A stretch of 64,000 nt of DNA from an uncultured Lachnospiraceae bacterium (GTDB lineage Bacteria; Bacillota; Clostridia; Lachnospirales; Lachnospiraceae), in assembly GCA_910578115.1 (NCBI GenBank), contig CAJTPO010000004.1:29539-93538 (forward strand), read 5' to 3'. The notes below the pieces were generated by a model. The model was not told where the DNA came from. It saw only the letters and a list, made by a program, of their open reading frames with translations, and searched no databases. Shown here piece after piece: positions 23,125 through 48,454 of the stretch (within the stretch, counting starts at the first letter, position 1; each line of letters starts with the position of its first letter). Both the position numbers and the translations under genes were made by a program.

Positions 23125-23137
23125 GGGAGAGCTTCGT

Positions 23138-24754: not shown

Positions 24755-24860
24755 AAAAGTTTTTTCGAAAATAAAGGTTAAAGATACGTATAATATATCG
24801 GCCAAAGACAAAAAAGAATGAGCTTCTTTTAGACTTCGTTATTTGAGGAGAGGGGAACAG

Positions 24861-25241: not shown

Positions 25242-25405
25242 TGAAACAATCCCACCCCTCCCCAGCAGAGCTGGGGAGAATCGTGTACGCAAGTGGCTAT
25301 GAACGAAGTCCCATAAAAAAGCCTCCGTTGTATAATAAGTGTAGGTCTGACAAACCACACAAAATACAACGGAGGCATCCATGGATAATCAAAGTTTATC
25401 ACATA

Positions 25406-27293: not shown

Positions 27294-27694
27294 CTCGACG
27301 TAGATATAATTGCACGTACCATATAGTATTTATCCCAAAATACAGGGTAAGGTGATGTTTGGGAATTTGAGAAAGGAGATAGGCGAGGCGATCAGTAAAG
27401 AGTGCAAGATGGAAGGAGTAACGATAATAAAGGCAGCGACGTAAACAGATCACGTGCATATGTATGTGTCAATTCCACCAAAAGAAAGTGTGTCAAAAGT
27501 AATGGGAAGAATAAAGGGAAAACAGCAGTCTAATTCTATTCGACAGACATCCAGAGTACAGGGAGAGATATAACCGGCATTTCTGGGCAAGAGGATATTA
27601 TTGCGAAACGATCGGTAATGTAGATGAGGCAACGATAACGAAGTATATTGCGGAACAATATGAGAGGGATCGACTGGAAGGAGAGACCTCGTAA
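27294..27694 (+). pseudogene. tnpA: IS200-type Y1 (HUH) transposase tnpA, exon 2, decayed; exon 1 is 25381..25405
   Basis: Joining MDNQSLSH (25381-25405) to TRRRYNCTYHIVFIPKYR reconstitutes the IS200 TnpA N-terminus. The HUH motif DHVHMYVSIPP is present. Several frameshifts and stops follow. Confidence 0.7.
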
Positions 27695-27878
27695 TGATTA
27701 AAGAGAAACCGCTTTTAAGTGGTTACCAGTAACAAAAAGGAACGGTTTGTCAGACCGTCTTTAGGCGGAAACACAAAAGACCTCGGAGGGGTTATAGCAA
27801 ACCACCAGCAGAGCTGGTGGCACTGACTTGGAGCCTTCAGAGCCTGAATATGATCATCATGAATGGAAGGAAATAATT

Positions 27879-33776: not shown

Positions 33777-35681
33777 ATGGAACATCTATATAGTGCCTTA
33801 ACATGGGTTATGAATGGCTGCTATAGTCTTTGTAATAATTATGGACTGGCAATCGTACTGTTTACATTTCTAAGTAAAATCGTATTATTACCAGTGTCTC
33901 TTTGGACTTACATGAATTCCATAACGATGATTAAGATTCAGCCGGATATTAATTTATTGAAAATAAAGTATTATGGGCAGAAAGATATCATAGCAGAGGA
34001 ACAGGCAAAATTGTTTAAGGAAAAGAAGTATCATCCTTTGGCGTCAACCATTCCGTTGATTATTCAGTTAGTATTGTTAATGGGCGTAGTAAGCGCTGTA
34101 CGGGCTGGAATAGATAACCCTGTGATTGATATGACTTTTGGACCAATTGATCTGGGATTGATACCGAGCCAGACGGGGGTAGAGTTGATCTGGTCTCCGA
34201 TTGTTGCCGGTGTAGCGGCATGGATATTATGTATTGCACAGAATGCAAGTAACATATTACAGTCTGAACAATCCAAGTATAATAAATATGGTACTATGAT
34301 TCTTTCAGTTGTTTTGTCGTTGTATTTAGGATGGTATGTTCCGATAGGGACTGCTTTTTACTGGGTCTGTAGTAACCTTATGGCAGTTTTGCAGTTATAT
34401 ATTCTTAATTGGATTATTAAGCCAAGAAAATATGTAGACTATGAGAAACTGAATAAGAGCCGTAAGACCTTGGTGGAATTACAGAATATAGGAAAAAAGA
34501 AAAAGGAAAGTTTTTTTTCTGAGAATAAGAAAAGAGAAAGAAGAGATTATAAGAGATTTTTTTCGATAGTTAATAAGCATTTGGTATTTTACTCTGAGAG
34601 TAACGGATTTTATAAGTATTTTAAGGGATTTATAGAATATTTATTAGAGCATACAAATATTACAATTCATTATATTACCAGTGATGCAAATGATGATATT
34701 TTTAAAAAGGAAAAAGAGAATCCACAGATTAAAGCATATTATATAGGCGAGAATAGATTAATCACGCTTATGATGAAAATGGATGCGGATATAGTTGTAA
34801 TGACGATGCCGGATCTTGATAATTTTCATATAAAGCGAAGCTATATAAGGGATGATATTGAGTATATTTATGTTCAGCATGATATGGGTGGAACTAACAT
34901 GGGAATGAGAAAGGGAAGCTTGAATCATTTTGATACGATTTTTTGTTCTGGGCCGCATCAAATATCAGAGATCAGGGAAACGGAAGAAGTATACGATCTG
35001 CCTGCAAAAGAGTTAGTTAAAGTAGGGTACCCGCTTATTGATGAAATTAAAGAAAAATATGATTCTGTAGAACATGGTGAAAATGCGATAAAGAAGATAT
35101 TAATTGCACCATCGTGGCAGGAAGATAATATTCTTGATACTTGTCTGGAGGAGCTTTTGGATGCACTTAAAGACAGAAACTACAATATTATTGTGCGGCC
35201 GCATCCGCAGGAAGTGCGTCTGAAAAGAGAATATATGGAATCTGTTAGACAAAAATATGAATCAGAACATGTAATAGTTCAAACGGACTTTACATCAAAT
35301 AATCCGGTGATGGAAGCTGACATGGTAATCACTGATTGGTCTGGAATAAGCTGGGAATATTCTTTTACAACGAAAAGGCCGGTGTTATTTATTGACACAC
35401 CGATGAAAGTGCTCAATCCTGAATACCAGAGAATAAAAACCGTTCCTTTAAGTGTTCAGTTAAGAGATAAAATTGGTAAAAGCATTAAATTAGATCAACT
35501 AGGAAAAGCAGCAGAATATGTTGAATTTTTGATGAATCATAAAGAAGAATATCAGGAGCAGATTACTAGACTGGCTGAAACGTATATTTTTAATCTTGGG
35601 AGTTCAGCAGAAGCTGGCGCAGATTATATTATCAAAAGTTTACAAGAGAAATTGAGCAGAAAAGGGGAAGGTGAAAAATGA
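33777..35681 (+). CDS. Fusion protein: YidC/Oxa1-like membrane domain + TagB/TagF-type CDP-glycerol glycerophosphotransferase-like domain (copy 2, intact)
   Basis: N-terminus GLAIVLFTFLSKIVLLPVSLW...QPDINLLK...EEQAKLFKEKKYHPL..IPLIIQLVLLMGVV. C-terminus ILIAPSWQEDNILD...IVRPHPQ...MVITDWSGISWEYSF..KRPVLFIDTP. Confidence 0.8.
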   Translation: MEHLYSALTWVMNGCYSLCNNYGLAIVLFTFLSKIVLLPVSLWTYMNSITMIKIQPDINLLKIKYYGQKDIIAEEQAKLFKEKKYHPLASTIPLIIQLVLLMGVVSAVRAGIDNPVIDMTFGPIDLGLIPSQTGVELIWSPIVAGVAAWILCIAQNASNILQSEQSKYNKYGTMILSVVLSLYLGWYVPIGTAFYWVCSNLMAVLQLYILNWIIKPRKYVDYEKLNKSRKTLVELQNIGKKKKESFFSENKKRERRDYKRFFSIVNKHLVFYSESNGFYKYFKGFIEYLLEHTNITIHYITSDANDDIFKKEKENPQIKAYYIGENRLITLMMKMDADIVVMTMPDLDNFHIKRSYIRDDIEYIYVQHDMGGTNMGMRKGSLNHFDTIFCSGPHQISEIRETEEVYDLPAKELVKVGYPLIDEIKEKYDSVEHGENAIKKILIAPSWQEDNILDTCLEELLDALKDRNYNIIVRPHPQEVRLKREYMESVRQKYESEHVIVQTDFTSNNPVMEADMVITDWSGISWEYSFTTKRPVLFIDTPMKVLNPEYQRIKTVPLSVQLRDKIGKSIKLDQLGKAAEYVEFLMNHKEEYQEQITRLAETYIFNLGSSAEAGADYIIKSLQEKLSRKGEGEK

Positions 35682-35971: not shown

Positions 35972-36697
35972 TTGAAAATATTGATTATGTCTGATATCCA
36001 TGGTAATGAAGAGGCTCTTAATGCTGTACTGAATAAAGCAGCAGACTATGAAATTGATGCTTGTTTTTTACTGGGAGATGTCATAGATTATGGAATGCAT
36101 TCTAATGAAGTAATTGTTAGGTTGAAATCTCTCCCGTACCCGATTATTTGTAACATTCGTGGAAATCATGAGGATGCTGTAATAGCAGATCATTACGATG
36201 CATTTTCATCGGAGCGGGGCAGGCAGAGTGCTAAATATACAAAAAGTATACTGAATGCGGACTCATGGAAGTATATACAAAATAAAATGGCTGCAACTGG
36301 TATGATTGAATTTGAGTGTGCCAATAAAAAGTGTCTGGCAATACATGGGAGTCTTAGAGATCAATATTGGAAAAGTATAGATACTGACAATGACTTTTAT
36401 GATTACTGCGCTTATGATTATGTATTTTCCGGACATTCTCATATGCCGCATTTTGTGGAAAAGTACTATCCGTATGAGGATACCAGAAGAAGAAATAAAA
36501 AGAAGATTATTTTCATCAATCCGGGTTCAGTGGGGCAGCCAAGAAATCATAATCCTATGGCACAATTTGCTGTATTGGATATGCATACAGAGGCTATTTT
36601 GTTTGACAAAGCAGAGTATGATATAGCAAAAGAACAATTGGCTTTTGCTGGGCAGATCGACAAATTTTATAGAGATAGATTGGAGGCAGGTGTGTAA
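35972..36697 (+). CDS. Metallophosphoesterase (YfcE/MJ0936-like)
   Basis: ILIMSDIHGN...LGDVIDYG...GNHE...GHSH. TTG start with RBS AAAAGGAA. Confidence 0.8.
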   Translation: MKILIMSDIHGNEEALNAVLNKAADYEIDACFLLGDVIDYGMHSNEVIVRLKSLPYPIICNIRGNHEDAVIADHYDAFSSERGRQSAKYTKSILNADSWKYIQNKMAATGMIEFECANKKCLAIHGSLRDQYWKSIDTDNDFYDYCAYDYVFSGHSHMPHFVEKYYPYEDTRRRNKKKIIFINPGSVGQPRNHNPMAQFAVLDMHTEAILFDKAEYDIAKEQLAFAGQIDKFYRDRLEAGV

Positions 36698-37686
36698 TGA
36701 ATTTATATGTTATCAGTGGAGTTGCTGGAATGACGGGAAATGAACTTGCCAGGAGGCTGACTGCATCAGGGGATAGAGTAATTGGATTTGATAATTTTTT
36801 TGCTTCTTCCGTAAGGACGATTGAGGATGTTCTATCTAACACAAATTTTGTGTTTTATGAATATGATTTAAATAACGAAGCGCAGATGGAAAGTTTGAAA
36901 CAGGAGATCTTTAAACATAAGAAAAGCTGTGAAAAGCTTATTTATATAAATTGTGCGGCAGTTGTACACACTGAACATTTCTATTATGTAAATCGTACTT
37001 TTGAAACGAATGTGATTGGTATGAAAAAATTTTTGGAACAGGCAATAGAAGTAGAAGCTAATGTTTATATTAATTGTTCTACATCAGAAGTGTATTCTAT
37101 GAATTCATGGAATAGTGACGGTGGAGTGTCCGAATCTGATTATATTACAATGGCTAATGCAGAACACAGTCAGAGGACAAGTTACGCTACTGGTAAATTA
37201 CTTACAGAGTTTTTTATGAAGGATGCGGTGGCAGAACATAAGATTAAGGGATGTTCTATTCGCTTTGCTAATGTTTACAGCAAGAATGAATTGTATCCGA
37301 AACATATTATTCCGCATATCATTAATGAATTAAGAAATAAAGGGTGTGTGGAGTTGTTGGAAAATTCCAAAGTAAATAAAAGGACTTTTTTGCATAACGA
37401 GGATAGTTGTGCCGCGGTGATAGCCTTAGCGGAAACAGACTCGGCGTTAGATGGGTCGGTATATAATGTGGCAACTGACGAGGAGATATCGATTATTGAT
37501 CTGGTAAAGCTTTGTGGTGAAAAATTAGGTATTACTGATCCGGAGATTATGTTTGAGGGATATCGGGAATCAGATCCGGAGAGAAGAGTGTTGAGTACTC
37601 AAAAGATCAGAACCAGAACAAACTGGATACCAAAGATAACCCTGAGTCAGGGAATAGAAATGTGTGTTAAGGAGTTAGAACATTGA
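36697..37686 (+). CDS. NAD-dependent epimerase/dehydratase (extended SDR)
   Basis: GVAGMTGNELARRL (GxxGxxG), SYATGK (YxxxK). Confidence 0.85.
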   Translation: MNLYVISGVAGMTGNELARRLTASGDRVIGFDNFFASSVRTIEDVLSNTNFVFYEYDLNNEAQMESLKQEIFKHKKSCEKLIYINCAAVVHTEHFYYVNRTFETNVIGMKKFLEQAIEVEANVYINCSTSEVYSMNSWNSDGGVSESDYITMANAEHSQRTSYATGKLLTEFFMKDAVAEHKIKGCSIRFANVYSKNELYPKHIIPHIINELRNKGCVELLENSKVNKRTFLHNEDSCAAVIALAETDSALDGSVYNVATDEEISIIDLVKLCGEKLGITDPEIMFEGYRESDPERRVLSTQKIRTRTNWIPKITLSQGIEMCVKELEH

Positions 37687-38429
37687 GAATTATGATTATT
37701 ACAGTTGCAGGGGTGGCAAGTAGATTCAGTCAGTCTATAGGTTGTCCCTGCTTGAAGTGTCTATACTATAAAAATGATATAAAAGAGTCTTTATTGTACC
37801 ACATACTCAGCCAGAATTCAGAGATTGATAAATATGTGATTGTTGGGGGATTTAAATTTGAGGAACTGGAAAGGAGCATTCATCAGTATTTCTCCCAGTT
37901 TTATGATCGCATCATTTTAGTGAAAAATGAAATGTATGAAAAATATGGATCAGGGTACAGTCTATATTTGGGATTGAATGCGATCAAGGATTTAAATTAT
38001 GATGAGCTGGTTTTTGCAGAGGGAGATTTGTGGGTTGATGAAGAGAGCTTTAGACGTGTATGGGAGACCCCCGGAAATGTGATTACATGTAACAATGAGG
38101 CGATTTTAGCAAGTAAGTCCGTTGCATTTTATTATGATCGTGAGTATAGAATTCACTATATATTTGATACTACTCATTCTCTACTGGAAATCAGAGAACC
38201 CTTTCAGGGAATTTTTAATTCGGGACAAATTTGGAAGTTTTCTCAAAAGGATTGTGTTCAAAAAGCTATGGCTGGGCTTACGCAGGAAGAATGGCAGCAG
38301 ACCAATCTTGGTTTTATTCAGAGATATTTTGGATGTCTTAATCAGGAAGGTTATAAAATTGTTAATTTTCAGAAGTGGTTAAATTGTAATACGAAATTTG
38401 ATTTTGATAAAATTGAAGGAATGAAATAG
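37683..38429 (+). CDS. Nucleotidyltransferase-fold protein (MobA/LicC-like NTP transferase), candidate cytidylyl/nucleotidylyl transferase
   Basis: N-terminal MIITVAGVASRF resembles the GxGxR(F/L) NTP-transferase loop. The rest is not recognisable by eye. Confidence 0.5.
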   Translation: MRIMIITVAGVASRFSQSIGCPCLKCLYYKNDIKESLLYHILSQNSEIDKYVIVGGFKFEELERSIHQYFSQFYDRIILVKNEMYEKYGSGYSLYLGLNAIKDLNYDELVFAEGDLWVDEESFRRVWETPGNVITCNNEAILASKSVAFYYDREYRIHYIFDTTHSLLEIREPFQGIFNSGQIWKFSQKDCVQKAMAGLTQEEWQQTNLGFIQRYFGCLNQEGYKIVNFQKWLNCNTKFDFDKIEGMK

Positions 38430-38433
38430 TCAA

Positions 38434-39555
38434 ATGAAAATCGGAATTATTACGTACGAAAGCTTATATTGTAATTTTACAAATTATGGAACTGTATTGC
38501 AGGCATGGGCACTTTTTAAAGTGGTATCCGGTCTTGACATTCTGTATGAGCCGGTTTTGATTGATTATTGTCCTGATATTATGCATGATAAAGATCCACT
38601 TAATCCAATGAAGAATATGTGGGATATGGATTATGAAACGAGAAAAATGTGTGAGCTGTCATTGCCATCTATTAAAATAAATTTTGAAAAGATTAGAAAA
38701 TTCTATTTTGAAAAAATCAGGATGTCAGATCGAAGTTATACATCAGCTACAATTAACAAGGTGGTGGATGAAGGGATTTCTAAATTTATTTGTGGAAGTG
38801 ATTCGATATGGGATATTACGGAGTTTGGAATGGATAGAGGTTTTTTTGCAGATTATCCGATAATGCAGGGAAATTCTATTGCCTATGCGCCAAGCTTTCA
38901 AGATTCTTTTTCGGAGTATTCTCAGGAGGAAAGGAGTCGACTCATCAAATTATTAAATAATTTTTCGGCTGTTGGTATACGTGATGAGGAACCTGTTAGT
39001 GTTCTGTGTAATTATGTGAACAGCGAAGTAAAAAGGGTGGTCGATCCTACATTATTATTGAAGAACAGTGATTTTGATGAGATTGTTGCAGAGAAACAGG
39101 AAAGTGAACGGTATCTGCTATATTATTCTCGAAGATATAATGAAGCGATGGAGCGTTTTGCAGTTGAGACTGCAAAGGCCAGAGGACTGAAAGTAATAGA
39201 GATTAGTTTGCGTCATGAGAATTATGAAAGACACAGAATGTTTTATGAAGCAGGAGTAGAGGAATTTTTATCACTTGTCAAATATGCGGATTGTGTAATC
39301 ACGAATTCATTTCATTGTTTGATTTTTGCCCTTCATTTTGAAAAAGATTTTTATGCTTTTACAAGAGAGCACTGTAACAATAAGATTTGTGAATTGCTTG
39401 CCAGATTAAATTTGGAAGGGAGACTGCTCAAAGATGGCTGTGAAAAAACAAAAAGTAAAATTGACTATTTGGATATAAAAGACCGTTTAGAAAAGGAACG
39501 TTTAGAGTCTTTGGAGTTTTTGGAGAGACAACTTAAAGATATTTGTAGAGGGTGA
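38434..39555 (+). CDS. Polysaccharide pyruvyl transferase family protein (copy 2)
   Basis: IITYESLYCNFTNYGTVLQAWAL...ICGSDSIWD...IAYAPSF...TNSFH. Confidence 0.8.
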   Translation: MKIGIITYESLYCNFTNYGTVLQAWALFKVVSGLDILYEPVLIDYCPDIMHDKDPLNPMKNMWDMDYETRKMCELSLPSIKINFEKIRKFYFEKIRMSDRSYTSATINKVVDEGISKFICGSDSIWDITEFGMDRGFFADYPIMQGNSIAYAPSFQDSFSEYSQEERSRLIKLLNNFSAVGIRDEEPVSVLCNYVNSEVKRVVDPTLLLKNSDFDEIVAEKQESERYLLYYSRRYNEAMERFAVETAKARGLKVIEISLRHENYERHRMFYEAGVEEFLSLVKYADCVITNSFHCLIFALHFEKDFYAFTREHCNNKICELLARLNLEGRLLKDGCEKTKSKIDYLDIKDRLEKERLESLEFLERQLKDICRG

Positions 39556-39559
39556 TAAA

Positions 39560-40772
39560 ATGAAGTCTGTGTACAATGATATTAAGAAACAATGTTTTGG
39601 ATGTGAAATATGTGTGGGGGGGTGTATGTCCCCATAAAGCAATCACTATGGTCGAAGATGAGGAAGGATTTAGATATCCGGAAATTGATCAGGAATTGTG
39701 CATAGATTGCGGTGCATGCAGGCGGATTTGTCCATATATTAATATACCAGAGAAAAATCAGCATAAACCATATGTGTTTGGTGGATATCATAAAAGTTCA
39801 GGGATTAAAGATCAAAGTACTTCGGGTGGAGCATTTTCAGCGATAGCTGAGGTGTTTTGTAATGAAAATTATGTTGTTTTTGGAGCGGCTGTTGAAGGTC
39901 TGAGAGTTTACCACACATATACTGAGGATAAAAAAGAGCTTTATAGGTTTAGAAGATCTAAGTATGTCCAAAGTTTTATGGGAGATTCCTATAAAAGAGC
40001 GATGCAGTTTTTGAAAGACGGAAAGAAGGTTCTTTTTTCAGGAACACCATGTCAAATTGCAGCATTAAATAATTATATTGTCCCCGCGGCGTTAAAAGAA
40101 AATTTATACACAATAGAAGTAGTATGTGAGGGGTTTCCGTCCCCACTTCTAATGAGAAAGTATTTTACGCTACTCAAGGAGCGTCACCATTCATCGGTTA
40201 GAGAAGTAGATTACAGATATAAAGACAGAAACCGGTGGGATTTCGAAGTTATGAAAATAACGTTTGAGAATGGTAAAGTTATGAAAAAGGATAGGTGGTT
40301 TAATCCTTTTTGGATTTTCTGGTCGGAACGTGTTATGGGAAGACCCTCATGTGACGAGTGTCCGTTTAGAACGACAGACAGGGTGGCAGATATTACGTTA
40401 GGTGATTTATGGGGAGTGCATAAATATTGTCCGGAATTATATGGAAATAATGGTGGCAGTTCTTTGGTCGTATGTAACAGTGAGAAGGGAGAAAAACTAT
40501 TTAAACAGGCAGAAAAGCTATTATACGGGCATGAACTGGCATATGAGGATGCATTAAAATATCAAAGACCTATGAGAGTGATCGTTCCGGCAAATGAAAA
40601 AAGAGAAATGTTCATGCATGATCTTAAGGCGTTGGATTATACGTCATTATGTAAGAAATGGAAGCCAAGAACGTCCTTGAAGGTATTGTTCTCTAAATAT
40701 ATATGGGGAAGTAATCGACAGGTTGTTAATTTTTGGAAAGTGAAGTCATATTTTATTAAGCCTAAGACTTAA
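39560..40772 (+). pseudogene. FrhB-like Fe-S flavoprotein (copy 2), frameshifted at a G7 tract near codon 20 (phase-OFF or a sequencing error)
   Basis: ATG 39560 gives MKSVYNDIKKQCFGCEICVGGCMSP*. After the G7 tract the paralogous sequence (VCPHKAITMVEDEEGFRYP...) continues in the +2 frame to 40772. Confidence 0.75.
39616..39622 (+). repeat. Homopolymeric G7 tract at the frameshift point
   Basis: tgtgtGGGGGGGtgtatg. Confidence 0.95.
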
Positions 40773-40870
40773 TTCTCCGGATAGAGTATTAAAAGGATGC
40801 GGTAAGTATTTCAATGACCCAAAGTATAAAGTGCTTTTCTCGTCTATCTTTTTAGGTGAGAGGTGACAAA

Positions 40871-42079
40871 ATGAATTCTGTTTATGATAATACCAAAAGT
40901 CAGTGCTTTGGGTGTGAAATTTGTGTAAAGGTGTGCCCTTATTCAGCAATATTGATGCAGGAAGATGAGGAAGGATTCAGATATCCTCAAATTAATGAAG
41001 AAAAATGTAAAGATTGTGGAGCATGTAAACGTATTTGTCCGTATATCAATCCACCGCAGAAAAATCAAAGAAAACCTTATGTATATGGTGGATATCATAA
41101 AAATAGTGTAATCAGAGATGAGAGTACTTCCGGTGGAGCATTTTCTGCAATAGTGGATGTATTTTGTGATAAAAATTATGTTATTTTCGGAGCAACAGCG
41201 AAAGGATTAGAAATCCATCATGAGTATATTGAAGATAAGAAAGAATTGGGGATATTTAGAAAATCCAAATATGCGCAAAGTTCCATGGGTAATTCTTATT
41301 TGTATGCAGCCAAGTTTTTGGAATCAGGGAAGAAAGTACTTTTTTCAGGTACACCCTGCCAAATTGCGGCTTTGAAAAATTACATTAAGCTGGAGAAGCT
41401 GAAAGAAAATTTGTTGACGGTTGAGGTTGTATGTGAGGGTTTTCCGTCTCCGCTATTGTTAAGAAAGTATTGTGCAATGCTCAAAGAACGTTATCATTCG
41501 TCGGTGAAAGAATTGGATTACAGGTATAAAGATAAGAAGCGCTGGGATTTTCAGGTCATGAAAATTTCATTTGAAAATTGCAGGACAATAAAGGAGGACA
41601 GGTGGTTTAGCCCCTTTTGGATATTCTGGTCGGAGCGCTTAATGAGTAGACCGGCATGTATTGAATGTCCATTTAGAACAACAGATCGGTTAGCGGATAT
41701 TACATTAGGTGATTTGTGGGGAGTGCATAAATATTGTCCGGAATTATATGGAAATAATGGTGGCAGTTCTTTGGTCGTATGTAACAGTGAGAAGGGAGAA
41801 AAACTATTTAAGCAGGCAGAAAAGTTATTATACGGACATGAACTGGCATATGAAGATGCATTAAAATATCAAAGACCTATGAGGGTGATCGTTCCGGCTA
41901 ATGAAAAAAGAGATATGTTCATGGATGATCTTCGTACATTAGATTATAAGGCGCTCTGTAGGAAGTGGAAGCCGAAGACATCCTGGAAGGTATTGTTCTC
42001 AAAATATATAGTGGGAAGTAATCGTCAGATTGTAAATTTGTGGAAACTAAAAACCATTTTTAAAAGGAGAAAAAGATGA
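40871..42079 (+). CDS. FrhB-like Fe-S flavoprotein with a 2x[4Fe-4S] domain (copy 3, intact)
   Basis: CFGCEICVKVCP...CKDCGACKRICP...STSGGAFSA...GTPCQ...ADITLGDLWG. ATG 40871. Confidence 0.8.
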   Translation: MNSVYDNTKSQCFGCEICVKVCPYSAILMQEDEEGFRYPQINEEKCKDCGACKRICPYINPPQKNQRKPYVYGGYHKNSVIRDESTSGGAFSAIVDVFCDKNYVIFGATAKGLEIHHEYIEDKKELGIFRKSKYAQSSMGNSYLYAAKFLESGKKVLFSGTPCQIAALKNYIKLEKLKENLLTVEVVCEGFPSPLLLRKYCAMLKERYHSSVKELDYRYKDKKRWDFQVMKISFENCRTIKEDRWFSPFWIFWSERLMSRPACIECPFRTTDRLADITLGDLWGVHKYCPELYGNNGGSSLVVCNSEKGEKLFKQAEKLLYGHELAYEDALKYQRPMRVIVPANEKRDMFMDDLRTLDYKALCRKWKPKTSWKVLFSKYIVGSNRQIVNLWKLKTIFKRRKR

Positions 42080-43254
42080 CAACATTAAATGAGAAACTGA
42101 ATATTCTGAGAGAAGAATTAAAGAATCGAAAAGCCAGAATTATGATCATTGGGCTGGGCAGTGTGGGCAATTATCTGCTGGATTATCTCATGTCTGCAAG
42201 AGATGAGGAAGTAGAAATCTGTGTAGTTGGACGTAATGGAATAAAGATGCAGTCTGATGTGAATATCGTGAGAGTTGCGTCAATGATCCGGGGGCAGAAT
42301 CGGAGCAGGGTTACAGTCATAGATGGGGTGGATTTGAATCACGTATCAGACATAGAATCAGCAATCAGAGCGTATGGGCCGGATATTATTGTGAACAGCA
42401 GTCGTGCATATTCCGGACTGAAATACGGAAGTATTTCCTGGAAAAATATCCGAGCATATGGAATTTGGACACCATTGTCGATCAAGTATACCAAAAATAT
42501 CATGGAAGCATATGAACAGGTTGGCTCTAAAGCAATCGTGATCAATACGTCCTATTCCGATGCCGTGATCCCATGGCTGAAATCTGCTGGAAAGGCCTAT
42601 CCGGATTTCGGAAGCGGCAATATCAATCATTTGATTCCGAGATTTCAATTTGCGATTGCAGAGAAGATGGGAGTTGATGATTACTGGAATATTGATATTA
42701 CATTTGCTGTGGCTCATTTCCATGATGTAGTGATCAGCAAAGAAGGACAGACCGAAGGGGTGGACATGCTGATGGATGTTCGCTATAAGGGACAGAAGGT
42801 TAATGTAGATGTTAACGCTATAGCTGCTGGCTGCTGTATTCCGATGCCGGTGGATGCAAAGCGTAACATGATGAATGCGTCCAGCAATTTTGAGATAATT
42901 CAGGCAATTCTTACTGCTGTGCGGGATCATAAGAAAGTCAAACTGCATTGTCCGGGTGTTTTTGGCGAGATTGGCGGTTATCCCATAGTGATTGATGGTT
43001 CACAGGAGTTGGTTGAGGCGGCAATTTGCGAGGATTACTTTGACCTTGATACGATGAGAAGGAAAAATCGGGAGTCTATCTATTTAGATGGGATTGAGAA
43101 CGTAGCGGATGGTGTTCTTACATATACTGATGAATTACTTGAGAAAGTCAGAAAGGCATTTGGAGTTGATCTGGTGAAAAACATTGCTTTTAGTGAAATA
43201 GACCAGGTTGCTGAATTTATTGTGAAAGAGATCATTGATAAAAATGCAGGCTGA
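42076..43254 (+). CDS. Rossmann-fold oxidoreductase of uncertain family (saccharopine-dehydrogenase-like N-terminus)
   Basis: RIMIIGLGSVGNYLLDYL (GxGxxG)...EICVVGRN...PDIIVNSS. Overlaps the upstream stop and lies 10 nt upstream of the PEP mutase gene. Confidence 0.45.
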   Translation: MTTLNEKLNILREELKNRKARIMIIGLGSVGNYLLDYLMSARDEEVEICVVGRNGIKMQSDVNIVRVASMIRGQNRSRVTVIDGVDLNHVSDIESAIRAYGPDIIVNSSRAYSGLKYGSISWKNIRAYGIWTPLSIKYTKNIMEAYEQVGSKAIVINTSYSDAVIPWLKSAGKAYPDFGSGNINHLIPRFQFAIAEKMGVDDYWNIDITFAVAHFHDVVISKEGQTEGVDMLMDVRYKGQKVNVDVNAIAAGCCIPMPVDAKRNMMNASSNFEIIQAILTAVRDHKKVKLHCPGVFGEIGGYPIVIDGSQELVEAAICEDYFDLDTMRRKNRESIYLDGIENVADGVLTYTDELLEKVRKAFGVDLVKNIAFSEIDQVAEFIVKEIIDKNAG

Positions 43255-43263
43255 GAGAAAGGC

Positions 43264-44571
43264 ATGGTTATTAAAATGAAAAAAGTATATACATGTTTCT
43301 GTACCAGTGTGATCCATGAAGGACATCTGAATATTATTAAAGAGGCGGAAAAATATGGGGAAGTGATCGTTGGTGTGCTTAGTGACGAGTCTATGGTGCG
43401 CTTTAATAAATTTCCCGCAGTTTCGTTAGAAGAACGTATGGAAATGGTACAGAATATCGAGGGAGTTAAACGTGTTATTGTCCAGAAGGATATTATGTAT
43501 GACGCAGTGATCAGGGAACTGCAGCCGGATTATGTGATTCACGGAGATAATTGGAAAAATGGTCCGATGCAGGCAATCAGGAACAATGTGGCATTGCTGC
43601 TGAGTCAATATGGAGGACAGATCATTGAAGTACCATATACCTATAATGAGCGCGTTAAGCATGCCGATGCATGCATAAAAGAAAAACTGGCTATGCCGGA
43701 ATACAGAAGGAAGAGGCTTAAACAGCTTTTGGGGCTGTGCCCGATTGTTAAAGCAATGGAAGTGCATAGTGGCCTGACCGGATTAATCGTTGAGAAAACG
43801 ATAATTGAGAACAATGGCGCGCTTGACCAGTTTGATGCTATGTGGATAAGCTCCCTGTGTGATTCAACAGCTAAGGGGAAACCTGACATTGAACTGGTTG
43901 ATATGACATCTCGGTTTCGGACGATTGATGATGTTATGGAGGTAACGACAAAACCGATTATTTTTGATGGAGATACAGGCGGGTTAACGGAGCATTTTGT
44001 ATATACGGTTCGTTCTTTAGAGCGAATGGGGGTGTCGGCCGTCATTATAGAAGATAAAACGGGCCTGAAAAAGAATTCTCTTTTTGGTAATGAGGTAGTG
44101 CAGGAATTGGATTCGATTGAACATTTTAGCGAGAAGATCAGAGCGGCGAAGCAGGTTCAGCTGACGGATGACTTTATGATTATTGCGCGTTTGGAAGCAT
44201 TAATTCTTGAGAAGGGACAGGAAGAGGCATTAAGGCGTGCGTGCGCATTTGTGGAAGCGGGTGCGGATGGAATTATGATCCACAGCAGAAAGAAAGCACC
44301 GGATGAGATATTTGAATTTTGTGATGCGTTCCGCAGTATGGATAAGGAGACGCCGATTGTTGTCGTGCCGACGTCCTATAATTCTGTGACGGAACAGGAG
44401 TTGATAAGGCATGGTATTAATATTGTCATTTATGCGAATCAGCTTACCAGAAGTGCATTTCCGGCAATGGAGCAGACTGCCAAGGACATTTTGAGACATC
44501 ATCGTGCGAAGGAAGTAGATGAAAAGCTTATGCCGATCAAGGATATTATATCGTTGATTGATGAATTGTAA
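43264..44571 (+). CDS. aepX: Bifunctional cytidylyltransferase-like domain :: phosphoenolpyruvate phosphomutase
   Basis: N-terminus VYTCFCTSVIHEGHLNIIKEA is an HxGH cytidylyltransferase motif. C-terminus MEVHSGL...IIFDGDTG...SAVIIEDKTGLKKNSL...IIARLEA...GADGIMIHS is PEP mutase/isocitrate-lyase superfamily with the EDK..KKNS signature. Confidence 0.9.
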   Translation: MVIKMKKVYTCFCTSVIHEGHLNIIKEAEKYGEVIVGVLSDESMVRFNKFPAVSLEERMEMVQNIEGVKRVIVQKDIMYDAVIRELQPDYVIHGDNWKNGPMQAIRNNVALLLSQYGGQIIEVPYTYNERVKHADACIKEKLAMPEYRRKRLKQLLGLCPIVKAMEVHSGLTGLIVEKTIIENNGALDQFDAMWISSLCDSTAKGKPDIELVDMTSRFRTIDDVMEVTTKPIIFDGDTGGLTEHFVYTVRSLERMGVSAVIIEDKTGLKKNSLFGNEVVQELDSIEHFSEKIRAAKQVQLTDDFMIIARLEALILEKGQEEALRRACAFVEAGADGIMIHSRKKAPDEIFEFCDAFRSMDKETPIVVVPTSYNSVTEQELIRHGINIVIYANQLTRSAFPAMEQTAKDILRHHRAKEVDEKLMPIKDIISLIDEL

Positions 44572-44621
44572 CATGTCGATGATTGCTATGTGGCAGTTTT
44601 GACTATGAGGGAGATAAAAGA

Positions 44622-45746
44622 ATGAAAGTAGAGAAGCTTTTAGAAATCATTGATTCGGATTTTTATACGGGAGTTCCAGATTCTCAGCTTAAAGCATTGT
44701 GCGATTATCTGATGCAGCACTATGGTATAGATTCAAAAAGGCATTTAATTGCGGCAAACGAAGGTAACTGCACAGCGATTGCAGCAGGGTACCATCTGGC
44801 CACCGGAAAAGTACCTGTAGTTTATATGCAAAACAGCGGGGAAGGAAATATTATTAATCCTGTTACTTCTTTGCTGAATGATAAAGTATACGCAATCCCG
44901 TGTGTTTTTATTATTGGATGGCGCGGAGAACCGGGAATACATGACGAGCCGCAACATATTTATCAAGGGGAAATAACGGTTAAACTTTTGAATGATTTGG
45001 ATATCCAGGCCTTTGTGGTTGGAAAGGAAACAACGGACGAAGAAGTTATAGATGCGATGAATACATTTCGTGTGGCACTCGAAACAGGCAAAAGTGTTGC
45101 TTTCGTAATTCGCAAAGGTGCACTCTCTTATGATGGTAAGGTTGTATATAAGAATGAGAACAGGATGTTAAGAGAGGATATTATTAAGCATATTACAAAG
45201 GTAACGGATCATGATCCTGTCATATCCACGACAGGAAAAGCAAGTCGTGAATTGTATGAGATACGTGAATCAGCCGGTCAGGGGCATCAGTATGATTTTT
45301 TGACAGTTGGTTCCATGGGACATAGTTCTTCTATCGCTCTGGGGATTGCGGTCAATAAGCCGGAAACAAAAATCTGGTGTATAGATGGAGATGGAGCCGC
45401 TCTGATGCATATGGGGGCGATGGCGGTGATTGGGGCGAATACTCCCGATAATCTGGTGCATATCATTATCAACAATGGTTCCCATGAGACAGTTGGTGGA
45501 ATGCCCACTGTAGCAGGAAGTGTGGATTTAACTGGGATTGCCAAAGCATGCGGATATCCTTATGCTGTAAGCGTTGATAGTTTTGAAGAGTTGGACAGAG
45601 AATTGAAAGATGCAAAACAAAGAAACAGACTTAGTATGATTGAGGTGAAATGTGCTATTGGTGCACGTGAAAATTTGGGTAGACCAAAATCTACAGCTGG
45701 AGAGAATAAACGGAATTTCATGGAATATGTAGAAAAGTTACATTAG
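44622..45746 (+). CDS. aepY: Phosphonopyruvate decarboxylase (ThDP-dependent)
   Basis: FYTGVPDSQLKALCDYL...GNCTAIAAGY...IDGDGAALMHMG...NNGSHETVGG. ATG 44622 with RBS GAGGGAG. Confidence 0.9.
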   Translation: MKVEKLLEIIDSDFYTGVPDSQLKALCDYLMQHYGIDSKRHLIAANEGNCTAIAAGYHLATGKVPVVYMQNSGEGNIINPVTSLLNDKVYAIPCVFIIGWRGEPGIHDEPQHIYQGEITVKLLNDLDIQAFVVGKETTDEEVIDAMNTFRVALETGKSVAFVIRKGALSYDGKVVYKNENRMLREDIIKHITKVTDHDPVISTTGKASRELYEIRESAGQGHQYDFLTVGSMGHSSSIALGIAVNKPETKIWCIDGDGAALMHMGAMAVIGANTPDNLVHIIINNGSHETVGGMPTVAGSVDLTGIAKACGYPYAVSVDSFEELDRELKDAKQRNRLSMIEVKCAIGARENLGRPKSTAGENKRNFMEYVEKLH

Positions 45747-45770
45747 CAAGTGATTTAAAGAGGTTATGTG

Positions 45771-46286
45771 ATGCGGCATTTTGACGGAGTAGAATGGAAA
45801 TATAGAATTGTAAAAGTTGTTTGGATTTCGTTGATTGTTGCGTTTGCTTACTATATTTCCAGAAACTGGTATCAAATTTCATTAATTCGTGGTGATTCCA
45901 TGAGTCCATCGTATCACAATATGCAGTTTGTCATGCTTGACAGACATACAAGGGATTATAGTTATGGTGATGTAATTACTTTTCAATGTGAAAATCTGAA
46001 TACTGTATTAGTAAAACGTATTGTTGCATGTCCCGAGGATCAGGTGGTTATCAAAAATGGGATACTGTATGTAAACGATGCGGTCAGTGTAGTTTTTCCG
46101 GAAAAGTTCATTTTTACATATGCTGGAGTTGCGAAGGAGTATGTGAATTTGGAAGAAAACCAGTATTTTGTGATTGGTGATAATCTGGAAAAGAGCAAAG
46201 ATAGCCGATATGCGGAAGTTGGGATTGTATATGGAGATGACATTTTAGGAAGGATACTTCCGTGGAAATCGGTATGTAGTTTGTAA
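45771..46286 (+). CDS. Type I signal peptidase (S26, Ser/Lys dyad)
   Basis: TM anchor, then RGDSMSPSY (Ser box), LVKRIVACPED (Lys box), GDNLEKSKDSRY. Confidence 0.85.
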   Translation: MRHFDGVEWKYRIVKVVWISLIVAFAYYISRNWYQISLIRGDSMSPSYHNMQFVMLDRHTRDYSYGDVITFQCENLNTVLVKRIVACPEDQVVIKNGILYVNDAVSVVFPEKFIFTYAGVAKEYVNLEENQYFVIGDNLEKSKDSRYAEVGIVYGDDILGRILPWKSVCSL

Positions 46287-46588: not shown

Positions 46589-48454
46589 ATGAATATCGTG
46601 ATAGACACTGTGGTTAATGGATTGCTTTGGCTCATCAATTTATGTTATGGATTTTGTAATAATTACTGGGTGGCAATTTTGTTATTCACATTTTTGACTA
46701 AGGTAATTTTGCTGCCTTTGTCAGTATGGGTTCAGAAGAATTCTATTAAAACTGTGAAGATGGCACCTGAGATGAATCGTATTAAAACAGTTTATTTTGG
46801 AAATCAGGAGGTCATTTCGGAAGAGCAGTATAAATTATTCAAAAAAGAAAAGTATAGTCCTTTTGCGGATTTAATTCCTTTGTTTGTTCAGCTTGCTTTG
46901 TTGATGGGAGTGGTAGAAGCTGTTAAGCAGGGCACTGACCTGACAGATATTCCGGTCAAGACTGGCGGAGTTACTTTGTTGATTCCGCTACTTGCAGCGT
47001 TATCTGCCTTTTTCATGTGTTTTGTGCAGAATAAAATTAATGTACTGCAGTCAGAGCAGGGGCATTTAAATCAGTATGGTACAATGATTTTTTCTGTTAC
47101 GCTTTCTCTCTATTTAGGTTTTTTTGTGTCGATTGGAGTTGGTTTCTATTGGATCTGCAGTAATCTTTTTTCTATTATTCAATTGGTTTTATTGAATATA
47201 TGGATTAATCCAAAGGATTATATAGATTATGAGGCCTTAAAGAGGAGTAAAGAAGAATTAAATAAAGTGCAGAAGATGATGTCAGTCAGGCGGAAGGCGG
47301 ATAAGAGGAATCCATATCGTTCTAAAGGCAAGGCTGATTATAAGCGTTTTCTCAGAACTTCGGACAAGAAGATTGTTTTCTATTCTGAGAAAAACGGGTT
47401 CTATAAATATTATAAGGACATTATTGAAGAGATAATTCGCAGGACGAATATTGTGATTCATTATATTACAAGTGATCCGGAAGATGAAGTCTTTCAGATG
47501 GAGAGTGATCAGTTTAAGCCGTATTATATTAATGAGACTCGATTGATCGTTTTAATGATGAAACTGGAGACGGAAATTATGGTCATGACTACTCCGGATT
47601 TGGAAAATTATCAACTTAAACGGTCTTATGTACAGAAGGATATAGAGTATATTTATGTGCCACATGATGTTAACAGTGTAAACTTGGCATTCCATAAAGA
47701 GGCATTGGATCATTTTGACACAATTTTTACTTCGGGACCGAAGAACACTGCTGAAATAATGGAGCGTGAGAAAAAATATGGACTGCCTGCTAAGAACTTA
47801 GTAGAATGGGGATCATCTATTATTGATGACATGACAGTTGCATATGAACAAATGGCAGGAGATCATGCACAAGAGAGACAGTGTGCAATTATGATTGCCC
47901 CTTCGTGGCAGAAGGATAATATTTTAGATTCGTGTATAGAGGAGATGCTTGATCAACTGGTACAAACTTCATATCATATTATAGTGCGGCCACATCCTCA
48001 GTATGTACGTCATTTTGAAGCTAAAATTGATGCATTGGCAGCAAAATATAAAGGGTATGATGTTGTTTTTCAGAAAGATTTTTCATCTACTGAATCAGTA
48101 TATATGTCGGATTTGTTGATTACGGATTGGTCAAGTATTTCATTTGAATATGCTTTTTCTACATTGAAGCCGGTATTATTTATAGATACGCCAATGAAGA
48201 TTTTGAATCCCGACTATCAGGAATTGGAAACTGTTCCGATTGATTTAGAACTTCGCAATAAAGTGGGTATTTCAATTGCACAGGATAGTGTTGGTGACTT
48301 GATTGTGGAGACTGTTGATAAACTTTTAAATGAAATACAGTTTGCACCGGAGTCAATGCAGAAATTAAAAGAAAAATATAGTTATAATATTGGAGAAAGC
48401 GGTAAGGCAGGAGCGAAGTATATTATTGAACGTCTTGTACAGCGTAAAAGATAG
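46589..48454 (+). CDS. Fusion protein: YidC/Oxa1-like membrane domain + TagB/TagF-like transferase domain (copy 3, intact)
   Basis: VAILLFTFLTKVILLPLSVW...EEQYKLFKKEKYSP...LFVQLALLMGVV. IMIAPSWQKDNILD...IVRPHPQ...LLITDWSSISFEYAF..KPVLFIDTP. Confidence 0.8.
   Translation: MNIVIDTVVNGLLWLINLCYGFCNNYWVAILLFTFLTKVILLPLSVWVQKNSIKTVKMAPEMNRIKTVYFGNQEVISEEQYKLFKKEKYSPFADLIPLFVQLALLMGVVEAVKQGTDLTDIPVKTGGVTLLIPLLAALSAFFMCFVQNKINVLQSEQGHLNQYGTMIFSVTLSLYLGFFVSIGVGFYWICSNLFSIIQLVLLNIWINPKDYIDYEALKRSKEELNKVQKMMSVRRKADKRNPYRSKGKADYKRFLRTSDKKIVFYSEKNGFYKYYKDIIEEIIRRTNIVIHYITSDPEDEVFQMESDQFKPYYINETRLIVLMMKLETEIMVMTTPDLENYQLKRSYVQKDIEYIYVPHDVNSVNLAFHKEALDHFDTIFTSGPKNTAEIMEREKKYGLPAKNLVEWGSSIIDDMTVAYEQMAGDHAQERQCAIMIAPSWQKDNILDSCIEEMLDQLVQTSYHIIVRPHPQYVRHFEAKIDALAAKYKGYDVVFQKDFSSTESVYMSDLLITDWSSISFEYAFSTLKPVLFIDTPMKILNPDYQELETVPIDLELRNKVGISIAQDSVGDLIVETVDKLLNEIQFAPESMQKLKEKYSYNIGESGKAGAKYIIERLVQRKR

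Follow-up and report, generated by a model that had tools for sequence, protein, structure and literature searches.

A six-gene phosphonate cassette with an uncharacterized oxidoreductase family in a cell-wall polysaccharide locus of a Lachnospiraceae bacterium

The commonest outcome among gene neighborhoods of the phosphoenolpyruvate (PEP) mutase gene ppm is 2-aminoethylphosphonate (AEP), found for 56% of them, with the AEP transaminase (AEPT) normally clustered with ppm and the phosphonopyruvate decarboxylase gene ppd, and approximately 13% of neighborhoods have no assignable branch-point enzyme (PMC8942020). Surface decoration is thought to take up most of the bacterial capacity for C-P biosynthesis (PMC8942020). 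Fibrobacter succinogenes (gene cluster family, GCF, 60) is among the carriers of ppm-ppd neighborhoods without any of the 7 branch-point enzymes (Li and Horsman 2022, PMC8942020), and archaeal neighborhoods (GCFs 869 and 685) share PF12850 and PF16363 genes with it (PMC8942020). According to that paper, which cites Vinogradov et al. 2001, the F. succinogenes exopolysaccharide bears N-(2-hydroxyethyl)-AEP, and Li and Horsman proposed reductive amination with ethanolamine for this organism, naming no enzyme (PMC8942020). Among other described routes, the cytidylyltransferase (CyTase) domain of the fosfomycin enzyme Fom1 uses 2-hydroxyethylphosphonate (HEP) as substrate (PMC6697681), and the Pnt pathway combines CMP activation by PntC with LicD-type transfer (Rice et al. 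2019, PMC6697681). The known reductases of phosphonoacetaldehyde (PnAA) are the iron-dependent alcohol dehydrogenases (Fe-ADH; PhpC, FomC, and DhpG, PF00465) and the newly described zinc-dependent medium-chain dehydrogenase/reductase (Zn-MDR) PbfG (PF00107), and large-scale HEP production by unidentified members of fiber-degrading communities has been speculated on (PMC13576164). Here, we describe a 64,000-nucleotide stretch from an uncultured Lachnospiraceae bacterium (GenBank assembly GCA_910578115.1, contig CAJTPO010000004.1, positions 29,539 to 93,538 of the forward strand), referred to as the window and numbered from its first letter, in which a six-gene cassette encodes PEP mutase (Ppm), phosphonopyruvate decarboxylase (Ppd), and an uncharacterized NADP(H)-type oxidoreductase that we call ROSS.

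With high confidence, we regard this cassette as a conserved, horizontally mobile unit encoding a YfcE/ApaH-like phosphodiesterase-type protein (MPE), an extended short-chain dehydrogenase/reductase (SDR), DUF6564, ROSS, a CyTase::Ppm fusion, and Ppd (Table 1). We fetched 80 genome loci, each encoding ROSS at 58% to 81% identity, and compared them by tblastn and clustering of open reading frames (ORFs). The contiguous block MPE-SDR-DUF6564-ROSS was identified in 72 of the 80 loci, always in the same gene order and with MPE as its first gene; all 6 genes lay within the fetched flanks in 60 loci, and the exact order of the window was found in 42. Ppm and Ppd permute around the fixed 4-gene block and were found after it, before it, or split on both sides. 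The gap between DUF6564 and ROSS was at most 137 bp in 70 loci, and 6 loci had 1 gene inserted at that junction. A three-gene insertion at this place, encoding a polysaccharide pyruvyl transferase and 2 FrhB-like Fe-S proteins, was identified in the window only (0/80 loci with these genes there), and because it splits the block, the cassette of the window consists of 2 parts, 35972-38429 and 42076-45746. A first-pass annotation, made from the letters of the window and a list of its ORFs, had described the second part as a three-gene phosphonate module; the conserved unit has 6 genes, and the 3 that were missed lie upstream of the insertion.

A scan of GTDB genomes with a degenerate motif retrieved more than 100 further loci. 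Bacterial carriers belong to Lachnospiraceae, Oscillospiraceae, Christensenellales, Ruminococcus, Acidaminococcaceae, Eggerthellaceae, Treponema, Gastranaerophilales, Fibrobacter, and, within Bacteroidales, to Prevotella, Odoribacter, Butyricimonas, Alistipes, and Muribaculum, and archaeal carriers include many Methanobrevibacter, Methanomethylophilaceae, and Thermoplasmata. Cultured strains with the cassette include Roseburia sp. 1XD42-69, Bianquea renquensis NSJ-32, Pilosibacter fragilis CSJ-4, Butyrivibrio sp. X503, Kineothrix sp. MSJ-39, and Odoribacter sp. AF15-53. Identities of 55% to 80% across domains point to horizontal spread within gut and rumen habitats. A metagenome-assembled genome (MAG) of F. 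succinogenes (locus L132) encodes a compact operon in the order CyTase::Ppm-Ppd-MPE-SDR-DUF6564-ROSS, with 41% to 65% identity to the window (59% for ROSS). Another F. succinogenes MAG, RUG10152, has 2 ROSS loci (L103 and L165), and in L103 the SDR directly adjoins ROSS, without the usual intervening DUF6564.

In the cultured Vibrio phage Va2 (MW073017, 128 kb), all 6 families are dispersed over 33 kb (80916-114288; L208, L209, and L213), as DUF6564, a ROSS-like protein (31% identity, E 2e-43), a Ppd-like thiamine pyrophosphate enzyme, Ppm, an extended SDR, and MPE, and this dispersed co-occurrence is independent evidence that the 6 genes work together. Judged by its gene content, the set would be a phage-borne phosphonate pathway, with the host surface, the virion, or DNA as candidate targets. 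The Va2 genes are scattered among those for dUTPase, ribonucleotide reductase, ligase, and exonuclease, and in the Va2 record the product labels of the SDR and MPE genes are apparently shifted by 1 gene relative to the Pfam results. Further, ROSS homologues were identified on phage-like contigs (L082, L083/L084, and L085/L086) that carry DUF1848, Dam methylase, helicase, NrdD, and thymidine kinase genes, some of them also with Ppm, Ppd, DUF6564, MPE, or SDR. Scans of IMG/VR with the ROSS protein and with the degenerate motif found no relatives.

The 2 genes that begin the phosphonate route have confident family assignments. In the CyTase::Ppm fusion, a cytidylyltransferase domain (aa 8-129) precedes a PEP mutase domain (aa 150-433). 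The former matches PF01467 (CTP_transf_like; aa 17-109, E 5.6e-15) and has HEGH at aa 18-21, and the latter matches PF13714 (PEP_mutase; aa 162-410, E 1.9e-55) and TIGR02320 (408 bits against an equivalog cutoff of 319.55) and carries the Ppm-specific EDKX5NS motif as EDKTGLKKNS (aa 263-272). The closest solved match of the N-terminal domain is the CyTase domain of Fom1 (5x3d, E 3.6e-27; next match E 8e-8), and the joining of an HxGH-bearing PF01467 domain to Ppm makes this a Fom1-type fusion. The next product scored 465.8 bits with the phosphonopyruvate decarboxylase model TIGR03297 (cutoff 312.5), which identifies it as Ppd.

The Pfam search covered every ORF of the window from 330 aa upward, together with the whole cluster, and no Aminotran_5 (PhnW-type), Fe-ADH, Aldedh, HMGL-like, or 2-Hacid_dh domain was detected in the 64 kb. 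Neither the 7 known branch-point families, among them AEPT (PF00266), Aldedh (PF00171), and HMGL (PF00682), nor the PbfG family (PF00107) were found in the window, and none recurs as a gene cluster beside the cassette in the 80 loci. On these points the first-pass annotation stands: it had named the CyTase::PEP mutase fusion and Ppd, had seen neither a PhnW-type transaminase nor an Fe-ADH, and had pointed to a Rossmann protein encoded just upstream of the fusion. The single aminotransferase in the window is of the DegT/DnrJ/EryC1 sugar type and lies 19 kb upstream (23138-24232; PF01041, 375 bits); we considered it as the source of the missing amination and rejected it, since other loci do not conserve it with the cassette.

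The ATG of the ROSS gene overlaps the stop codon of the preceding gene (ATGA), so that the 2 genes are translationally coupled. The protein has the motifs GLGSVG (aa 26-31), GRN (52-54), GSGNINHLIPR (179-189), and HFHD (214-217), an invariant basic loop SSRAYSGLKYGSISW at aa 108-122, of which residues 111-120 have low confidence in the AlphaFold2 (AF2) model, and a further invariant stretch DAKRNMMNASSN at aa 260-271. Among 82 cassette orthologues with 54% to 81% identity, 101 positions are at least 97% invariant. There is no NCBIfam model for ROSS, a direct sequence search against the PDB gave no match (E>0.5), and the informative comparisons were those with a family profile and with the AF2 model. 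The only Pfam match is to PF03435 (Sacchrp_dh_NADP; aa 22-114), at 22.8 bits and thus below the gathering score of 25.1, and 44 of 65 ROSS relatives match this family at E<0.01. A profile of these 65 sequences matches carboxyspermidine and saccharopine dehydrogenases over approximately 90 N-terminal residues only (E 2e-7, CANSDH 8deb), and Sacchrp_dh_C (PF16653) was detected in 0 of the 65. Arg53, in the GRN motif after beta-2, aligns with the NADP-binding Arg (ASRT) of carboxyspermidine dehydrogenase, which suggests that ROSS uses NADPH.

The AF2 model (pLDDT 95.6, pTM 0.94) was compared with the PDB by Foldseek, and the best 50 matches were lactate and malate dehydrogenases (LDH and MDH), except for 1 GH4 enzyme with an LDH fold. 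Altogether, 346 PDB structures matched at E<=1e-3, the best MDH/LDH at E 8e-10, and the overall fold is that of this group at a moderate degree of match (TM 0.44 to 0.64, rmsd 5 to 9 Å). The Ldh_1_N and Ldh_1_C Pfam domains were detected neither in ROSS nor in its 65 relatives. A weak profile-to-LDH alignment (14.4 bits) places H214 on the catalytic His195, R189 on Arg171, and D162 (in VINTSYSD) on Asp143, and His185 replaces Asp168. ROSS is, therefore, a saccharopine dehydrogenase-like NADP(H) Rossmann domain joined to an LDH/MDH-like catalytic domain, and it does not belong to the saccharopine dehydrogenase family in a way that would allow reductive condensation to be inferred. The resemblance to saccharopine/carboxynorspermidine dehydrogenases suggested in the first-pass annotation accordingly holds for the N-terminal NADP domain and fails for the remainder of the protein, and structure prediction, proposed there as a check, led to LDH/MDH and not to a saccharopine reductase. 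With the likeness confined to the NADP-binding part, there is no longer a basis for arguing from the typical chemistry of that family to reductive condensation.

The family is compact. Searching 1.84 billion representatives exhaustively with HMMER gave 437 clusters at the level of 50% identity (E<=1e-3), and a word-indexed search gave 2969 related proteins, the best 120 of which are 70% to 90% identical, approximately 391 aa long, and derived from Lachnospiraceae and Eubacteriales metagenomes.

The other 3 genes of the block encode MPE, the SDR, and DUF6564. MPE, whose best solved match is 3rqz (E 1e-19), is by sequence of the phosphodiesterase or nucleotide pyrophosphatase type (YfcE/ApaH). 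The SDR, with orthologues 63% to 82% identical in related loci, has GalE, RmlB, and UXS1 as solved relatives (E 3e-15 to 1e-12) and carries the motifs GVAGMTG, STSEVY, and YATGK and an Asp after beta-2 (GFDNF), as in extended redox-neutral NDP-sugar SDRs; this Asp suggests NAD+ as the cofactor. STSEVY and YATGK are common to UXS-type decarboxylases and GMD-type 4,6-dehydratases, which hold NAD+ tightly and use nucleotide-linked substrates. DUF6564 has the invariant nucleotidyltransferase residues A9, G10, R14, K25, E113, and D115, and its profile is closest to Streptococcus pneumoniae LicC (1jyk, E 2e-11) and next to the Treponema denticola PntC-AEPT fusion (6pd1, E 2e-5); this similarity and the GT-A signature AGxxxR...K...ExD mark it as a putative LicC/PntC-type enzyme. 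Taken by family, the 3 proteins suggest work on a nucleotide-linked intermediate that would be activated, transiently oxidized, and hydrolyzed or re-activated.

Table 1. Features of the cassette and its immediate surroundings in the window
Feature	Position	Strand	Evidence
Second YidC::TagF-like fusion, immediately upstream of the cassette	33777..35681	+	PF02096 E 1.4e-26
Cassette gene 1: MPE, YfcE/ApaH-like phosphodiesterase type	35972..36697	+	PF12850 E 9e-22
Cassette gene 2: extended SDR, NDP-sugar epimerase/dehydratase/decarboxylase type	36697..37686	+	PF01370 E 2.6e-27, PF16363 E 1e-24
Cassette gene 3: DUF6564, LicC/PntC-like nucleotidyltransferase (putative)	37683..38429	+	PF20202 E 5.8e-91
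3.6-kb insertion splitting the cassette, outside the conserved unit	38434..42079	+	Pfam
Polysaccharide pyruvyl transferase (insertion)	38434-39555	+	Pfam
Two FrhB-like Fe-S proteins (insertion)	39576-40772, 40856-42079	+	Pfam
Cassette gene 4: ROSS, 392-aa NADP(H)-type oxidoreductase, uncharacterized family	42076..43254	+	Profile, AF2, motifs
Cassette gene 5: Fom1-type CyTase::Ppm fusion, 435 aa	43264..44571	+	Pfam, TIGR02320, motifs, PDB match
Cassette gene 6: Ppd (alternative TTG start at 44583)	44622..45746	+	TIGR03297
Signal peptidase I, encoded between Ppd and the downstream YidC::TagF-like fusion	45768..46286	+	PF10502 E 1.3e-24
YidC::TagF-like fusion, candidate CMP-phosphonate transferase	46589..48454	+	PF02096 E 6e-28, PF04464 E 2.6e-11

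Our best explanation, to which we give a probability of about 0.38 as a whole, is that ROSS reduces PnAA to HEP, which is then activated with CMP and transferred to a surface polymer. As follows from their confident family assignments, Ppm converts PEP to phosphonopyruvate, and Ppd decarboxylates this to PnAA, pulling the equilibrium. ROSS would then consume PnAA in an NADPH-dependent reaction, replacing Fe-ADH, Zn-MDR (PbfG), and AEP transaminase. In this general form the claim is probable: ROSS is assigned the PnAA step because it is the sole NADPH-type net reductase in the cassette and because it remains alongside Ppm and Ppd even where the rest of the cassette is missing. The functional tie between the Rossmann gene and Ppm/Ppd, which the first-pass annotation had assumed, is borne out by the adjoining homologues in 60 of 80 genomes, by distant variants, and by a phage. 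As to the product, HEP and an N-substituted AEP are nearly balanced, and carbonyl reduction to HEP is narrowly favored over reductive amination because of the LDH-like catalytic domain, the Fom1-like domain, and the ROSS relatives that bring a separate transaminase. HEP would then be turned into CMP-HEP by the Fom1-type part of the Ppm fusion, and the SDR, DUF6564, and MPE would most likely tailor or re-activate the nucleotide-linked intermediate, by a transient-cytidylylation logic like that of Fom1/Fom3/FomD. Such tailoring may lead to a head group of the N-(2-hydroxyethyl)-AEP type reported from Fibrobacter.

In the last step, the YidC::TagF-like proteins of the window, and LicD in most other genomes, would move the CMP-activated phosphonate to a wall or surface glycopolymer, and it is synteny that points to this. 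The downstream YidC::TagF fusion scored 43.5 bits with PF04464, the family of TagF-like CDP-glycerol glycerophosphotransferases, against a gathering score of 22.1, and the upstream copy, 48% identical to it over the full length, is TagF-like by this paralogy. An orthologous fusion lies directly after Ppd in 5 Ruminococcus loci (L069, L071, L073, L074, and L079; PF04464 E 7.8e-13 for the Ruminococcus orthologue), and fusions near the cassette were also identified in L076 and L138. LicD-family transferases (PF04991 E 8e-46) and GT2 glycosyltransferases are recurrent cassette neighbors, in 37 and 22 of the 80 loci, respectively. The flanking TagF-like domains and the order of CMP activation and TagF-like transfer had both been put forward in the first-pass annotation, and both find backing here. 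The joining of a YidC/Oxa1-type insertase to a TagF-like domain is an unusual architecture that also occurs beside the cassette in Huintestinicola and Lachnospiraceae loci; the YidC-like part may be an anchor or something more. A third, truncated YidC::TagF 5' end was found at 24843-25244, very similar to the start of the upstream copy and ending just before a group II intron (Rfam RF02005, 25443-25664, 134.8 bits), with a reverse-transcriptase ORF from 25910, the whole region spanning 24843-27800. A 521-aa gene between DUF6564 and ROSS in 4 loci (cluster 11) had been considered TagF-like on an RPHP motif seen by eye, and it was dropped with no BLASTP or Pfam support.

Variants of the cassette bear on the reduction of PnAA to HEP from both sides. 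A bare trio of CyTase::Ppm, Ppd, and a 38%-identical ROSS homologue, in which the other 3 cassette genes are missing, and other distant ROSS homologues that directly follow Ppd in phage-like contigs support ROSS acting on PnAA or a close derivative. More distant relatives (25% to 28% identity) show translational coupling to class-I/II aminotransferases, and an ATP-grasp enzyme or a HAD phosphatase lies nearby; this pattern of a dehydrogenase with a separate aminotransferase suggests alcohol or carbonyl chemistry for the wider ROSS family. Several findings weigh against the HEP route. A type II cassette (L184, Lachnospiraceae MAG CANQNE010000032, 540-7952; also L210) has the order LicD, MPE, a ROSS paralogue (33% identity), an AEPT-like class-V transaminase (TIGR03301, 249 bits, below the cutoff), a PF12804 nucleotidyltransferase, CyTase::Ppm (78% identical to that of the window), and Ppd; a transaminase stands there in place of the SDR, with ROSS, MPE, and 2 nucleotidyltransferases retained, so the ROSS paralogue would not be the sole PnAA user. 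In L087, Ppd and an Fe-ADH are followed by gene fragments and then by SDR-DUF6564-ROSS, so that ROSS would be redundant as a PnAA reductase in this locus, which may be a mosaic. A 34%-identical ROSS homologue occurs without Ppm or Ppd and together with MPE, a phosphoglycerate mutase-like protein, SDR, choline kinase, BCCT, a LicC-like nucleotidyltransferase, and a second nucleotidyltransferase; L085 and L086, with no Ppm, carry genes of these kinds. The nucleotidyltransferase fused to Ppm is PF12804 and not PF01467 in L035, L036, L048, and L049, and such interchangeability weakens the step from Fom1 likeness to HEP. To these are added the moderate quality of the structural match to LDH with no Ldh Pfam domain, the roles of SDR, DUF6564, and MPE, which the evidence leaves without explanation, and F. 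succinogenes itself, which has the same cassette, no AEPT in the ppm neighborhood, and a reported nitrogen-containing head group (PMC8942020); a pure HEP route supplies no nitrogen.

The Fibrobacter head group would be accounted for if ROSS were an opine/carboxynorspermidine dehydrogenase-type reductive aminase that joins PnAA to an amine such as ethanolamine or an amino acid such as L-serine with NADPH, giving an N-substituted AEP and, as the end product, CMP-N-(2-hydroxyethyl)-AEP, a possibility that we consider real but doubtful. It agrees with the ethanolamine amination already put forward by Li and Horsman (PMC8942020), with the cassette having no aminotransferase, with the NADP domain of ROSS being nearest to carboxyspermidine and saccharopine dehydrogenases, and with DUF6564 being nearest to LicC and PntC, activators of amine-bearing head groups. 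We also reason that an NAD+ SDR resembling UXS/GMD could form the hydroxyethyl product by decarboxylation of CMP-linked N-(phosphonoethyl)serine. The catalytic domain, however, is LDH/MDH-like, with no Sacchrp_dh_C and with no saccharopine reductase or CANSDH among the top 50 Foldseek matches; we know of no imine reductase with an LDH fold, which counts against this alternative, and the ROSS relatives found in amine-forming contexts carry their own aminotransferase. The Fibrobacter link consists, moreover, of MAG synteny and 1 statement in the literature. A specific serine route, in which ROSS condenses PnAA with L-serine, DUF6564 cytidylylates N-(2-phosphonoethyl)serine, and the UXS-like SDR oxidatively decarboxylates the product to CMP-N-(2-hydroxyethyl)-AEP, appears improbable as a whole. 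It would yield a secondary-amine phosphonate by carrying the logic of nucleotide sugars over to an acyclic compound, CMP-N-(phosphonoethyl)serine being an atom-for-atom open-chain mimic of an NDP-hexuronate. If true, it would account for the Fibrobacter head group with neither a transaminase nor free ethanolamine, and also for the portability of the cassette to archaea and phage.

The remaining alternatives take ROSS away from free PnAA. The 4-gene block might build a separate nucleotide-activated unit (for example a CDP-polyol or an NDP-deoxysugar, in analogy to TarI/TarJ beside licABC) or work only on nucleotide-linked intermediates; the conversion of PnAA would then fall to the SDR or to an enzyme from another part of the genome. 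We judge this unlikely. The block is indeed conserved more tightly than its link to Ppm/Ppd, and 5 loci have it with no Ppm or Ppd within 10 kb; the gene set around the 34%-identical homologue without Ppm or Ppd resembles tarIJ-licABC; and ROSS is repeatedly paired with a phosphoesterase, either MPE or, in L083, a weak DHH-like protein. A TylC3-type NDP-ketosugar C-methyltransferase (PF08484, PF08421) was identified inside the cassette in L007 (10651-11850) and L043, and hints at a nucleotide-linked carbonyl intermediate or at a C-methylated variant of the head group. A separate unit is, however, difficult to reconcile with the bare CyTase::Ppm-Ppd-ROSS trio, which has no SDR, nucleotidyltransferase, or MPE, with type II cassettes having no SDR, with DUF6564 being nearer to LicC/PntC than to sugar-1-phosphate or TarI/IspD-type transferases, and with no other PnAA-using enzyme being conserved near the cassette. 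The trio and the type II cassettes are also the reason why a classical deoxysugar reading (nucleotidyltransferase, 4,6-dehydratase, and ROSS as 4-ketoreductase) was rated low. That the product is ordinary AEP, made by a PhnW-type transaminase encoded outside the window, with ROSS an unrelated enzyme of the polysaccharide locus, is very improbable: our analysis covers 64 kb of the genome, and AEP is the most frequent outcome (PMC8942020), but ROSS accompanies Ppm/Ppd across bacterial phyla, archaea, and phage, which is unexpected of an unrelated gene, and the normal place of AEPT is beside ppm and ppd. We give the least credence to ROSS being an MDH-like phosphonopyruvate reductase that forms phosphonolactate in parallel to Ppd (VlpB-type branch). 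Phosphonopyruvate is an analogue of oxaloacetate (PMC8942020), the fold is LDH/MDH-like, and ROSS has residues aligned to His195 and to Arg171, the binder of the 2-oxo-acid carboxylate; against this, no downstream valinophos-like genes are present, and a second phosphonopyruvate sink is unnecessary because Ppd is co-conserved in the cassette and often adjoins ROSS. The reduction of PnAA to HEP by ROSS is the reading that we narrowly prefer.

The phosphonate cluster lies on the plus strand inside a large cell-wall polysaccharide locus that also encodes a Wzm/Wzt ABC exporter, GT2 and GT4 transferases, GtrII-like proteins, a sulfatase-like protein, and an acyltransferase. Signal peptidase I (Table 1) is absent from related loci and not conserved with the cassette; it is a neighbor whose role may be unrelated. 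The tandem FrhB-like 4Fe-4S proteins of the insertion have near-identical C-terminal halves, which suggests a recent duplication, and a second pyruvyl transferase/FrhB pair at 29587-31876 makes this pairing recurrent in the window. The DegT aminotransferase belongs to an amino-sugar sub-cluster (20035-24232) with a small ORF (20035-20454) judged by eye alone to be WxcM/FdtA-like, a GT2 assigned in the same way, and several small unannotated ORFs; the probable product of the sub-cluster is an acylated amino-dideoxy sugar that goes into the same polymer. A 707-aa protein adjoining the 4-gene block in L005 (11267-13390), L001, and L026 shows a weak, sub-threshold CBS match and a C-terminal citrate-lyase-ligase/HIGH-nucleotidyltransferase domain (CTP_transf_like); in L005, one of the loci that have neither Ppm nor Ppd within 10 kb, it follows the block. 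A promoter and terminator scan of 33-49.5 kb gave background levels and was uninformative on operon structure. The GC skew of the window is strongly and uniformly positive (approximately 0.3 in most 2-kb windows), with nearly all genes on the plus strand, and the G+C content rises from approximately 0.33-0.40 in the polysaccharide locus to 0.45-0.54 beyond approximately 52 kb, in a region with genes for a sugar ABC transporter, amylomaltase, and LacI. The glycan locus may be compositionally foreign.

The cassette is a phosphonate tailoring pathway and not a new kind of system; it has none of the characterized post-Ppd enzymes, holds an uncharacterized oxidoreductase family and an uncharacterized DUF, and occurs widely in bacteria of the gut and rumen, in archaea, and in a phage. 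In the literature that we searched, it has no description beyond being flagged as an unassigned neighborhood. One unassigned type of ppm neighborhood can now be given as a discrete, mobile six-gene cassette, with a candidate named for the missing post-Ppd step, an LDH-fold NADPH oxidoreductase family with no characterized member. A head group other than AEP, as anticipated in the first-pass annotation, is plausible in view of the same cassette in F. succinogenes and the N-(2-hydroxyethyl)-AEP reported from that organism. How this compound is made can now be addressed with cultured strains and 6 clonable genes, as can the question of which organisms produce the HEP or phosphonoglycans catabolized by plant-fiber-degrading communities (PMC13576164), for which carriers of the cassette are candidates. 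We predict that wall polymers bearing phosphonates exist in abundant gut commensals of humans and animals and in methanogens of the rumen.

Compared with fosfomycin biosynthesis in Streptomyces, the cassette shares the CyTase::Ppm architecture, with Fom1 as the nearest solved relative of the N-terminal domain, and the Ppd (Fom2) that follows; a nucleotide-linked phosphonate intermediate with a dedicated phosphodiesterase is plausible in both, the Fom system having a transient CMP-HEP that is released by FomD. In contrast, the cassette has no Fe-ADH (FomC), radical-SAM Fom3, FomD (DUF402), or Fom4, its reductase candidate belongs to an unrelated LDH-like family, and it lies in a wall polysaccharide locus and not in an antibiotic cluster. 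With the Pnt pathway (Ppm, Ppd, AEPT, PntC, and LicD), it would share CMP activation followed by transfer to a surface glycan, and further likenesses are the LicC/PntC-like DUF6564, the frequent LicD neighbors, and a second nucleotidyltransferase fused to Ppm; it differs in having no AEP transaminase and in the added ROSS, extended SDR, and MPE, and the transferases of the window are YidC::TagF fusions rather than LicD.

The neighborhood type that Li and Horsman classed as 'post-Ppd other' is matched by the window in its Ppm, Ppd, PF12850, and PF16363 genes, in having no branch-point enzyme, and in its synteny with Fibrobacter, and since the F. succinogenes and Methanobrevibacter loci that we fetched have the same 6 genes, we consider the window cassette to be that unassigned family. 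ROSS, DUF6564, the six-gene definition, and the spread to Lachnospiraceae, other gut Clostridia, and phage are additions to their account (PMC8942020). Among enzymes, LDH and MDH are the best structural matches of ROSS, and the weak profile alignment gives their His195, Arg171, and Asp143 counterparts in it; ROSS is approximately 80 residues longer, its Rossmann domain is closer to the saccharopine dehydrogenase and SDR types, and it has His185 in place of Asp168. The carboxy(nor)spermidine and saccharopine reductases (PF03435 with PF16653) resemble ROSS in the NADP-binding domain, and an aldehyde reductively aminated by such an enzyme would agree with the lack of a transaminase, but the catalytic domain of ROSS has no structural match to these enzymes among the top Foldseek hits. 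The PnAA reductases PhpC/FomC/DhpG and PbfG carry out the same reaction that we propose for ROSS, PnAA with NAD(P)H to HEP. ROSS is related to them neither by sequence nor by fold, lacks a metal-ADH signature, and would represent a third, convergent class of PnAA reductase.

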